In this document: positions 35,560 through 40,059 of the stretch, one piece after another
Layout of the letters: each line of letters starts with the position of its first letter
Position numbering within the stretch: position 1 is the stretch's first letter
From: Octopus sinensis
Lineage: Eukaryota
Assembly: GCF_006345805.1 (NCBI RefSeq)
Contig: NC_043015.1
Location: 11,532,001-11,596,000 of the forward strand
DNA length: 64,000 nucleotides
Reading direction: 5' to 3'
Position numbers and translations under genes: made by a program
The notes under the pieces: generated by a model
Told to the model about the DNA's origin: nothing
Seen by the model: only the letters and a program-made list of their open reading frames with translations
The model's database searches: none

Positions 35560-36622
35560 TCACAGCGATAATGTTCTTCTCAGTACATGAGTCGTTCCAG
35601 TTAACAAGATTTTTTGCACTTCCTGTAGGGATGGAAAGCCTGGTATCATTTTCAAATAGGTTTCAGTACCTTTTATTTTTTTTATCATTCCTAGAGATCC
35701 TACAATCACTGGTACTGTAGTCGCCTTGAGATGCCACATTTTTCAATTTCTGTTTGCATGTCTTTATATTTACTGAACTTGTCAAATTCTTTCGCTGACA
35801 CACCTTCTTTGTCTGATCTTTTATAATAATATTCGGTTTATTAGCTTTTATAGTTTTGGTGGTATGTACGGGGAAGTCCGAGAGCATCGACACATTTTCT
35901 CCCTCGGTCACAGCTTTAGGATGGTGTTTATACCATTCGTCAGCGGTTTTGATTTTATAATGCCGACATATTGCCCACTGTAAATACCGGCCGACTCTGT
36001 CATGTCTTGTTTTATATTCTACAGGTGCTAAGACTCAACACCCTGAGATTCGGTGGTCTATAGTTTCGATCTCACCGTTACAGAATTGGCATTTTGGGTC
36101 AGCTCCATAGTTTATCACATTGGCTTGGTAGTACCGGGTTAATACCGGGTAATAAGTCTCCCGCAGCTAATATAAAACCTTAACTCACTGCTTTTAGCCC
36201 TGTTCTTCGAAACCATTGATGCGTGTGTTTCTGGTTGACATCAGCTTGTTTGCTACGGGCCAGATACTTGCCATGCAGAGGTTTCTGTTCCCATCTGCTA
36301 GCTAATTTTTCATGTGCTTTTGTATTTGCAATTAGTTTTATTTTCTTTGCAGCAGCAGTTGGCGTATTTCTTTGAACCTGATCAATCTGGTAGGTATCTA
36401 AGACATGAGTAGCGAATTTTTTGTCCTCTTTCAGAATAGAGTGAAGCTTTTTCGGTCTTTCATGTTTTTCAAGTTTTAGCATCCAATCGTAGGTTGTTTC
36501 AAGGTATTTGGCCAGTCCCATTGTAGTGGTTTTGTACGTAAGTTCAAGCTGAATCAAGCCTCGGCCTCCCTGAGCTCTGGGAAGGTAAAGACGATCCACG
36601 TCTGCCTTTGGATGGTGCATCT
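35560..36622 (-). mobile_element. R4/Dong-type LINE relic (post-RT, CCHC, RLE)
   Basis: HHPKADVDRLYLPRAQGGRGL, WEQKPLHGKY, a CQFC zinc knuckle, DFPVHTTKTIKANKPNIII and QKILLTGTTHVLRR. Confidence 0.88.
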
Positions 36623-36632
36623 TATTACATCT

Positions 36633-36835
<203 letters not shown>

Positions 36836-36961
36836 ATCATCATCAACCTCATCATAGCGATTTATTACTATTATCACTTTCATTGAAATCATCTTTGTTA
36901 TCTGTAATAGTAGTGGTGGTGGTGCTGATGGTTTTAGTAGTAGTAGTAGTAGTAGTAGTAA

Positions 36962-37985: not shown

Positions 37986-38267
37986 ATATGTACATATATT
38001 TATATGTGTGCGTGTACATACATGAATATATAAATTTATATACACATACATAACGATATATATACATATATACATACATATATATCTATACATATACATA
38101 CATATATATAGATATACACGCACACATACATATGTATGTACACATTTATAATATTGATAGTTAGACAGATTCACTTTTATATATGTATATGCACACATAT
38201 ATGTAAAGTTATATATATATGTTTGTATACGTTCCTATATATATATACTTATATATATATATATATA

Positions 38268-38309
<42 letters not shown>

Positions 38310-38626
38310 ATATCTATATATATATAATATATATATATATTTTCAACAATTGAGGGCAAAATTAATTAATTATTAATCAATTTCACCAAGTGTTCAGTAT
38401 GCAAAGGGACCATTCAAGGCGAATTCAAATTATTACATTATATAAAAGGGCTTAGTAAAATAAATTACTTTGCCGCATACTGAACTCATTAGAAATAGCA
38501 GCTAAAAAATTTTTTAAAGCTATTTCTAATACTTAAAGAAAATCTCTCTCATATATAGTGTTTGCTTAATTCAACTCACAAAAGTTTGGGGGTAAGGACA
38601 TCGAAAAATCAAATGCTAAGGTTATT

Positions 38627-38680
38627 TGAGAACGTACGTTTCAAGATTAGTCAAAAAACAACACTTCTATCATCAGCTCA
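38627..38680 (-). ncRNA. Minimal type-I hammerhead motif, monomer 1
   Basis: UGAG-CUGAUGA-[UAGAAGU..ACUAAUCUU]-GAAA-C-GUAC-G-UU-CUCA. Confidence 0.65.
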
Positions 38681-39172
38681 GAAATTCCTTGGTTTGGATT
38701 TGGAAACACTGAAAATAAGAACATACCCTTTCGAAGATTTGCTCGTAACTAACAGTGCCAACAAATTCAATAAGCAAGCGAAGAATCTCTGTTCTCCCCT
38801 TTCCACCAGCGTGGGTTAAAAACATCAAACACTATGCTTATTTCGGTAAAATCCGAAGCATTAATCAGAGGGAGATTAATTATAATTTCAACAATTGAGG
38901 GCAAAATTAATTAATTATTAATCAATTTCACCAAGTGTTCAGTATGCAAAGGGACCATTCAAGGCGAATTCAAATTATTACATTATATAAAAGGGCTTAG
39001 TAAAATAAATTACTTTGCCGCATACTGAACTCATTAGAAATAGCAGCTAAAAAACTTTTTTAAAGCTATTTCTAATACTTAAAGAAAATCTCTCTCATAT
39101 ATAGTGTTTGCTTAATTCAACTCACAAAAGTTTGGGGGTAAGGACATCGAAAAATCAAATGCTAAGGTTATT

Positions 39173-39226
39173 TGAGAACGTACGTTTCAAGATTAGTCAA
39201 AAAACAACACTTCTATCATCAGCTCA
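39173..39226 (-). ncRNA. Minimal type-I hammerhead motif, monomer 2
   Basis: Identical to the motif in monomer 1. Confidence 0.65.
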
Positions 39227-39778
39227 GAAATTCCTTGGTTTGGATTTGGAAACACTGAAAATAAGAACATACCCTTTCGAAGATTTGCTCGTAACTAACA
39301 GTGCCAACAAATTCAAATAAGCAAGCGAAGAATCTCTGTTCTCCCCTTTCCACCAGCGTGGGTTAAAAACATCAAACACTATGCTTATTTCGGTAAAATC
39401 CGAAGCATTAATCAGAGGGAGATTAATTATAATTTCAACAATTGAGGGCAAAATTAATTAATTATTAATCAATTTCACCAAGTGTTCAGTATGCAAAGGG
39501 ACCATTCAAGGCGAATTCAAATTATTACATTATATAAAAGGGCTTAGTAAAATAAATTACTTTGCCGCATACTGAACTCATTAGAAATAGCAGCTAAAAA
39601 ATTTTTTTTTACCGAAATAAGCATAGTGTTTGATGTTTTTAACCCACGCTGGTGGAAAGGGGAGAACAGAGATTCTTCGCTTGCTTATTTGAATTTGTTG
39701 GCACTGTTAGTTACGAGCAAATCTTCGAAAGGGTATGTTCTTATTTTCAGTGTTTCCAAATCCAAACCAAGGAATTTC

Positions 39779-39832
39779 TGAGCTGATGATAGAAGTGTTG
39801 TTTTTTGACTAATCTTGAAACGTACGTTCTCA
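39779..39832 (+). ncRNA. Minimal type-I hammerhead motif, inverted copy
   Basis: TGAG CTGATGA TAGAAGTGTTGTTTTTTGACTAATCTT GAAA CGTACGTT CTCA read directly on the + strand. Confidence 0.65.
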
Positions 39833-40027
39833 AATAACCTTAGCATTTGATTTTTCGATGTCCTTACCCCCAAACTTTTGTGAGTTGAATTAAGCAAACA
39901 CTATATATGAGAGAGATTTTCTTTAAGTATTAGAAATAGCTTTAAAAAAGTTTTTTAGCTGCTATTTCTAATGAGTTCAGTATGCGGCAAAGTAATTTAT
40001 TTTACTAAGCCCTTTTATATAATATAT

Positions 40028-40059
<32 letters not shown>

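Follow-up and report, generated by a model that had tools for sequence, protein, structure and literature searches.

Two inverted tandem arms with two fixed ends in a hammerhead-bearing repeat family of Octopus sinensis, a probable PLE-mobilised retrozyme

Anatomy of the array and its hammerhead motif

The window analysed here, a 64,000-nt stretch of Octopus sinensis DNA, contains a tandem array of a non-coding monomer between two TA-rich microsatellites (Table 1). Re-deriving the coordinates reproduced the original observation of two monomers of 545 and 547 bp, a partial third monomer and an inverted copy, all within (TA)n, the inverted part covering positions 96-512 of the monomer as numbered on the plus strand of monomer 2. 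Monomers 1 and 2 differ by two 1-nt gaps only, in or beside homopolymer runs. Over 420 nt the inverted arm matches the complement of monomer 2 at 100%, and it meets the arm starting at site A (the A arm) via a 2-nt overlap in a T run. The ribozyme is read from the minus strand, which makes the plus strand equivalent to first-strand cDNA. Open frames that overlap the element measure no more than 86 codons from stop to stop, and no RT or GIY-YIG coding was present in it, in line with the earlier claim of a monomer with no recognisable protein. Both internal stems that had been named earlier were located, at 38392-38402/38475-38485 and 38488-38499/38519-38530, and in the predicted fold of this region site B falls in the unpaired part of the larger stem-loop. 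Elsewhere in the window, two ORF fragments on the minus strand (35663-36630) adjoin a (TAA)n run at 36634-36837. We take them to resemble a restriction-like-endonuclease non-LTR retrotransposon; Pfam gave no match over the cut-off for these fragments, and PDB gave none.

Table 1. Features of the two-armed array in window coordinates
Feature	Coordinates	Strand	Remarks
Left TA-rich microsatellite, predicted insertion target	38026-38340	.	(TA)n flanks at nearly all mapped loci
Monomer 1, 545 bp	38342-38886	-	Outermost unit of the arm starting at fixed site A (monomer position 1)
"Tail" of ~95 nt, the sequence between sites A and B	38342-38436	-	At one outer end only; cf. PMC11167929, PMC8557442
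Two stem-loops around or beside site B	38392-38530	-	Alignable with sister family; predicted fold
Hammerhead motif type I, copy 1	38627-38680	-	Predicted cut 38631/38630
Monomer 2, 547 bp	38887-39433	-	Reference for monomer numbering
Hammerhead motif type I, copy 2	39173-39226	-	Predicted cut 39177/39176 (monomer 291/290)
Partial monomer 3, positions 1-175, 175 bp	39434-39608	-	Inner, variable end of the A arm
Inverted arm, positions 512 down to 96	39607-40023	+	Outer end is fixed site B
Hammerhead motif type I, copy 3, inside the inverted arm	39779-39832	+	Predicted cut 39828/39829
Right (TA)n microsatellite, predicted insertion target	40024-40059	.	TA-rich run spans 40016-40059

The expected single hammerhead motif per monomer was found, with its core at minus 38676, minus 39222 and, in the inverted arm, plus 39783. 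Core positions follow the standard hammerhead numbering, and the cut sites of the three copies are placed where we presume them to lie from the hammerhead consensus. The motif shows the core letters of this consensus together with a GUU triplet. Helix I is 4 bp long, U.U occupies the base of helix II, and helix III has 2 bp, with a strand that forms a self-complementary 8-mer. No hammerhead match was obtained from Rfam at the gathering and E-value thresholds, folding of the 91 nt in isolation does not give a hammerhead (z +0.6), and a loose core pattern has 9 other matches in the window, so that the motif alone is weak. We accepted the hammerhead as real because of comparative evidence from subfamilies and from covariation in a sister family, and not because of the motif or the fold alone.

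Among 288 matched monomers, 223, at 61 loci, carry the intact core in the form seen in the window, 35 combine a GUA triplet with G.U at the base of helix II, and 16 (5 loci) carry U4C; in 9 additional copies the base of helix II is A-U. The U4C sub-lineage (monomer position 335; for example L157, L172 and L204) nonetheless forms multi-monomer arms. The sister family has a 587-nt monomer (L221:1501-2087; copies L266-L285), is roughly 60% identical and older, and gave 1,579 and 920 candidates in two genome searches. Its hammerhead has the same core in the same place and on the same strand, with helix I letters that are different but paired, a palindromic helix III of its own, a longer helix II and GUC, GUA or GUU as the triplet. 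Pairs were counted on the sister family alone, the cross-family alignment having misplaced helix III. In 20 copies, uncorrected for kinship, the closing pair of helix I was A-U in 13, G-C in 5, G-U in 1 and unpaired in 1, and 92.8% of cells pair. The earlier claim of a conserved hammerhead in a dispersed family is thus strengthened by the intact cores and by the compensatory pairs of the sister family, and the view that the monomer carries a conserved type I hammerhead, with predicted cleavage, is supported.

Published work bears on the individual features of this motif. A short palindromic helix III has been described as the mark of ribozymes working as pairs in tandem repeats (PMC4209133). 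The axolotl motif HHR_Amex2 resembles that of the window in its 2-bp helix III and in the U.U at the base of helix II, the latter being found in an axolotl retrozyme that cleaves (PMC7229834). The U4C change is reported to be less active in vitro, yet to retain viroid infectivity (PMC3088659), and of the Xenopus retrozyme dimers described, 1 of 9 cleaved (10.64898/2026.07.22.740005).

Dispersal, two arms and two fixed ends

Searching the genome (2.72 Gb) with the monomer gave 893 candidates, and the 40 that were scored yielded at least 200 matches; the 150 matches listed from this search are 96-100% identical to the monomer. Exact-pattern searches, whose counts are lower bounds, found TA joined to monomer position ~96 (site B) at least 1,036 times, TA joined to position 1 (site A) at least 374 times and monomers joined to each other at least 1,101 times genome-wide, while the reversed-pattern controls gave 0 matches. 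As had been proposed, the copies proved to be tandem and dispersed instead of confined to a single locus: about a thousand loci with differing flanks share the same two ends. Insertion at TA repeats was likewise upheld. (TA)n flanks nearly all mapped loci, including those of the best-match sample, which was chosen without the TA that the A- and B-end search patterns demand. The family lacks an LTR and has a low GC content, and its monomer is strongly self-paired (fold z = -5.8 linear, -5.7 circular). A literature search, with Repbase and Dfam outside its scope, returned no description of an octopus retrozyme or of this family. At L046, L263 and L051/L052, whole two-armed insertions were present twice, in tandem or on two contigs, by duplication or assembly redundancy.

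Parts of the monomer were contained in 23 sequencing runs (8 studies, 3 organisms), in all cases as contigs and none of them listed as RNA. In four presumed-RNA runs, 29, 29, 29 and 27 of the 29 monomer bins were covered and the 547-to-1 join was present in three of the four, with no molecule ends, contigs being of a kind that cannot separate circles from tandem DNA or RNA. The contigs of one run hinted at A-to-I editing (40 A>G/T>C against 11 C>T/G>A), which is not claimed here, the genomic copies leaning alike (43 against 31).

The mapped set comprised 95 insertions, namely 35 best-match insertions, the window included, and 60 B ends on contig C1, where the first 63 B ends were sampled and 3 were already in the best-match set. 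Two inverted arms were present in 76 of the 95. Within these 76, one arm started at position 1 and the other at ~96 (A+B) in 73 insertions, 3 were unclassable, and A/A or B/B pairs numbered 0. The A+B insertions had been chosen by their B end in 44 cases and by best match only in 29. Sixteen further A ends on C1 without a matching B pattern resolved into 9 A+B insertions, 6 single-armed ones, 1 running into a gap and 0 A/A; the candidate A/A pair at L262 was really an A+B insertion with a separate stub. In the sister family, 20 of 27 insertions were A+B and 5 unclear, with A/A and B/B occurring once each, so that the A+B rule has exceptions there. A description of such a one-arm-per-site rule was not found in the literature search.

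The predicted fixed end beside (TA)n with a variable other end was therefore borne out and can be refined to two fixed ends, at 1 and ~96, one per arm. The inverted piece proposed earlier can be refined too: the inverted arm is often several monomers long, and the B arm exceeds the A arm in 28 of the 73 insertions. Arms ranged from a few bases to 18 monomers in the mapped set, reaching 24 in L264. Single arms retain their fixed end and are truncated at random positions at the other, a B arm alone being found at 10 of the 60 B-picked loci. Where the arms meet, the 73 insertions showed microhomology in 41 cases, a short insert in 23 and a blunt join in 9. Tandem monomers, a truncated copy in inverted orientation and a tail confined to one end occur together at 73 of the 76 two-armed loci, and this anatomy, as mapped, matches the published PLE (Penelope-like element) pattern of an inverted copy plus tail.

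None of 146 inner ends fell at 288-292, the predicted cut site. At L082:2904-3112, the sole case seen, a B arm stops exactly at 290, again the predicted cut site, with short repeats of its final 9 nt after it. A set of 599 pattern matches considered as arms ending at the cut site was set aside: among the first 100, T stands at this position in 95, and the matches inspected come from the GUA-triplet subfamily and are not run-off ends.

One template and the way it is copied

Substitution differences averaged 0.54% within an arm, 0.67% between the arms of an insertion and 3.18% between loci (medians 0.41, 0.47 and 1.21%). Of 99 variants present in at least two monomers, 65 were fixed within a locus and 34 were not, many of the latter being edge or alignment noise; positions 95, 399 and 483 are excluded from this variant count, and L052 (the same insertion as L051) and the doubled L046 from the counts in general. 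Ten variants were fixed and private to one sampled locus, 8 of them in both arms. The 24-monomer arm in L264 was fixed for a variant that the 6 other loci compared lack; of the callable monomers at this locus, 21 of 21 carry it. Furthermore, the inner ends coincided within 12 nt in 18 of the 28 short insertions, in which both arms are below one monomer in length (permutation mean 3.3, p 5e-5), and in 1 of the 45 longer ones. On the grounds of these shared variants and coinciding inner ends, it is quite probable that both arms were copied from one template, a conclusion that does not separate double priming from fold-back. In 7 of the 28 short insertions neither arm contains the other, which calls for two starts on the template or for a later deletion. 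Minor variants were mirrored between the arms in 2 of 109 cases, most of them probably sequencing noise that deserves little weight.

Fixation of private variants throughout whole arrays, as in L264, speaks for a circular template. No indel scars were found at positions 288-290 in 228 monomers, a result that a precise circle or an uncut multimer would give and sloppy template jumps would not. Real-looking differences between monomers were seen in L055, L170 and L054, and the two arms of L061 differ. The 18-monomer arm of L042 (joined with L115) had a 5-monomer substitution period (p 0.002, one of 7 arrays tested). Its indel errors were not 5-monomer periodic (p 0.15), which indicates that the period is not an assembler's copy. 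A possible 6-monomer period was present in L031 (joined with L032; p 0.08). The mixed monomers and the period in L042 imply that not every arm stems from a monomer circle; multimer circles formed by incomplete cleavage, or later DNA duplication, would either of them explain multi-monomer periods. Whether multimer arms had a circular template is, in our judgement, evenly balanced.

The family is very probably a PLE-mobilised retrozyme, as originally proposed, a reading supported by its dispersal, tandem form, (TA)n ends, variable inner ends and conserved hammerhead, with cleavage and circles as predictions. The array in the window is likely to be one young insertion of this non-coding hammerhead tandem family, made by PLE-type mobilisation in which one RNA was copied from both cut ends. 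The element would be transcribed on the minus strand and would cleave itself, probably via paired ribozymes in tandem units, and the products would be ligated into ~546-nt circles and some multimer circles. A Penelope-type RT/GIY-YIG protein would then cut both strands of a TA repeat, and one RNA template would be copied from both cut ends, with one start at position 1 and the other at ~96. Read-around copying would produce multi-monomer arms, and the two cDNA ends would be joined by microhomology or short inserts. Counting against this model are the negative search of 49 PLE loci for a helper that shares sequence with the monomer, the absence of inner ends at the cut site and the weak ribozyme type (GUU, U.U, 2-bp helix III). 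In the in vitro system described for the anole PLE protein PAc, cleavage and extension by the protein take place on both strands of AT-rich DNA, two internal RNA start sites bound the tail, a dimer is predicted, and ribozyme cleavage is not required for transposition (PMC11167929). More tentatively, the two primings might be coupled: a PLE dimer would bind a single ribozyme-made circle, either a monomer or a small multimer, its subunits would start at A and B respectively, each on a different strand of the double-strand break, and once both had read around the circle their products would be joined. If true, such coupled double priming would account in a single step for tandem arrays, inverted copy and tail in all PLEs, and it would amount to in vivo support for the copying of an animal circular RNA by rolling-circle reverse transcription.

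As the main route, double priming appears somewhat likely in preference to fold-back, in which the same element and enzyme would prime once, the first cDNA would fold and be copied to the second site, and the resulting palindrome would later lose part of its centre. Coinciding inner ends fit fold-back equally well, near-perfect palindromes make up 18 of the 28 short insertions and 1 of the 45 long ones, in agreement with a decay of long palindromes, several centres lie on small local palindromes (at about 243 and 297), and self-priming has been proposed for PLE inverted junctions (PMC3846280). We nevertheless judge fold-back rather unlikely. The 7 non-nested short insertions and the 10 B-only loci would need a separate B start or large deletions, the minor variants are not mirrored between arms (though sequencing noise probably accounts for most of them), and two RNA start sites have been shown in vitro (PMC11167929). 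An uncut linear read-through transcript as the template, with a dispensable ribozyme and arrays lengthened or homogenised later in DNA, is somewhat unlikely. It would accommodate the dispensability of cleavage for PAc in vitro (PMC11167929), the weak ribozyme and active U4C sub-lineage, the lack of a pile-up of ends at the cut site, the periods in L042 and possibly L031, and the mixed monomers in L055 and L170. It would, however, need a frequent single-monomer bottleneck to yield locus-private variants fixed in all monomers of both arms, and it sits poorly with a hammerhead kept through compensatory changes across families that are ~60% identical.

Readings outside reverse transcription fare worse. 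Foldback elements have long inverted arms of tandem units and identical terminal inverted repeats at both ends. A foldback transposon, a Helitron-like rolling-circle element or a satellite with a chance hammerhead-like motif would fit the inverted tandem arms, which look foldback-like, and the 9 loose core matches elsewhere in the window. Such a DNA-level origin is very improbable: the two ends are different sites, unlike identical terminal repeats, a single arm retains the fixed end and is randomly shortened at the other, the ribozyme covaries, and the anatomy fits the published PLE structure (PMC8557442). Local duplication or an assembly artefact could draw on the many homopolymer indels of the assembly and on the doubled insertions (L046, L263, L051/L052), but about a thousand loci with different flanks share both ends and the indel errors are independent between monomers, which leaves this explanation a negligible probability.

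Candidate helpers and known relatives

To serve the preferred PLE-type mobilisation, a partner would have to supply the RT and GIY-YIG functions. The genome contained 5,029 GIY-YIG candidates, of which 150 were scored. A young PLE family has 781-aa RT + GIY-YIG frames that are 98-99% identical, and it ends in (TA)n with a 32-nt tail of its own. In Pfam, its protein scored 28.9 bits for RVT_1, just below the cut-off of 29.6, and was above the cut-off for GIY-YIG; it shares the linker cysteine motif described for Neptune/Nematis (PMC8557442). Sequence common to the monomer and the PLEs was not found by blastn or by a two-family profile in 49 PLE loci, where the profile matched only two inserted copies. 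Judging from these frames, PLE machinery exists in the genome, and a partner of the monomer was not found by homology among the 49 loci.

Several of these loci hold further features. Directly upstream of the young PLE RT frame lies a second open frame of 479 codons (L097:1673-3112, L101:5999-7438), and in L097 a stretch of 1,652 nt is repeated ~5.9 kb apart, which hints at a long tandem unit. Two more hammerhead motifs, each with a palindromic helix III, lie downstream of the young PLE (L099:6528-7620, L100:6659-7753), one of them in an inverted repeat; these probably represent further retrozyme families. Hammerhead-like motifs with a palindromic helix III also occur in other PLE loci (L070:2612, L075:968 and 2310, L104:7009).

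A short, young family of about a thousand copies gives statistics that long autonomous elements cannot, namely on the start site of each arm, on template sharing and on stops. It thereby allows precise predictions to be put to the in vitro PLE system already available and offers a useful test of the PLE insertion mechanism. L1 twin priming starts twice on a single RNA and yields inverted arms with microhomology at their join. Its second site varies and its arms cover separate parts of the template, whereas in the octopus family both sites are fixed at a spacing of ~95 nt and the two arms are copies of one and the same sequence.

The closer comparison is with the EN+ PLEs. These are described as sharing (TA)n targets and insertions in which partial tandems lie beside a truncated, inverted copy and the tail is restricted to one end (PMC8557442, PMC3846280), and, with PAc, a type I hammerhead with palindromic helix III and two internal start sites (PMC8557442, PMC3846280, PMC11167929). 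The octopus element differs from the EN+ PLEs described in having no ORF, a tail of ~95 nt instead of 30-40, and two arms that may each span many monomers (up to 24). Its near-strict one-arm-per-site rule is not reported for PAc in vitro, where start sites did not differ between the strands (PMC11167929). How PLEs form tandem and inverted insertions is stated to be unresolved (PMC8557442). Non-autonomous PLEs of Chlamys such as MRC1 share multicopy head-to-tail insertions with the element; according to the same account they generally resemble the 3' end of an autonomous family, a likeness not found here among 49 PLE loci, and belong to a clade without canonical hammerheads (PMC8557442).

With metazoan non-LTR retrozymes the family has in common dispersed, well-folded, non-coding, low-GC tandem monomers that carry one type I hammerhead each and occur alongside PLEs (PMC7229834; 10.64898/2026.07.22.740005). 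Its 546 nt lie above the range of 170-400 nt for the invertebrate and axolotl retrozyme RNAs that were tested (PMC7229834) and within the 51-972 bp range of a later survey (10.64898/2026.07.22.740005). Two inverted arms with two fixed ends are not described in the available text on published retrozymes, "inverted" occurring 0 times in that of PMC7229834. Circles and cleavage have been demonstrated for published retrozymes and are predicted for the octopus element, and reverse transcription of the circles is presented there as a proposal, not a result (PMC7229834). Retrozymes have been argued to be non-autonomous PLEs (10.64898/2026.07.22.740005). By the sequence-level definition of the class, the octopus element is a metazoan non-LTR retrozyme, a class already known, and it bears the insertion signature of a non-autonomous PLE.
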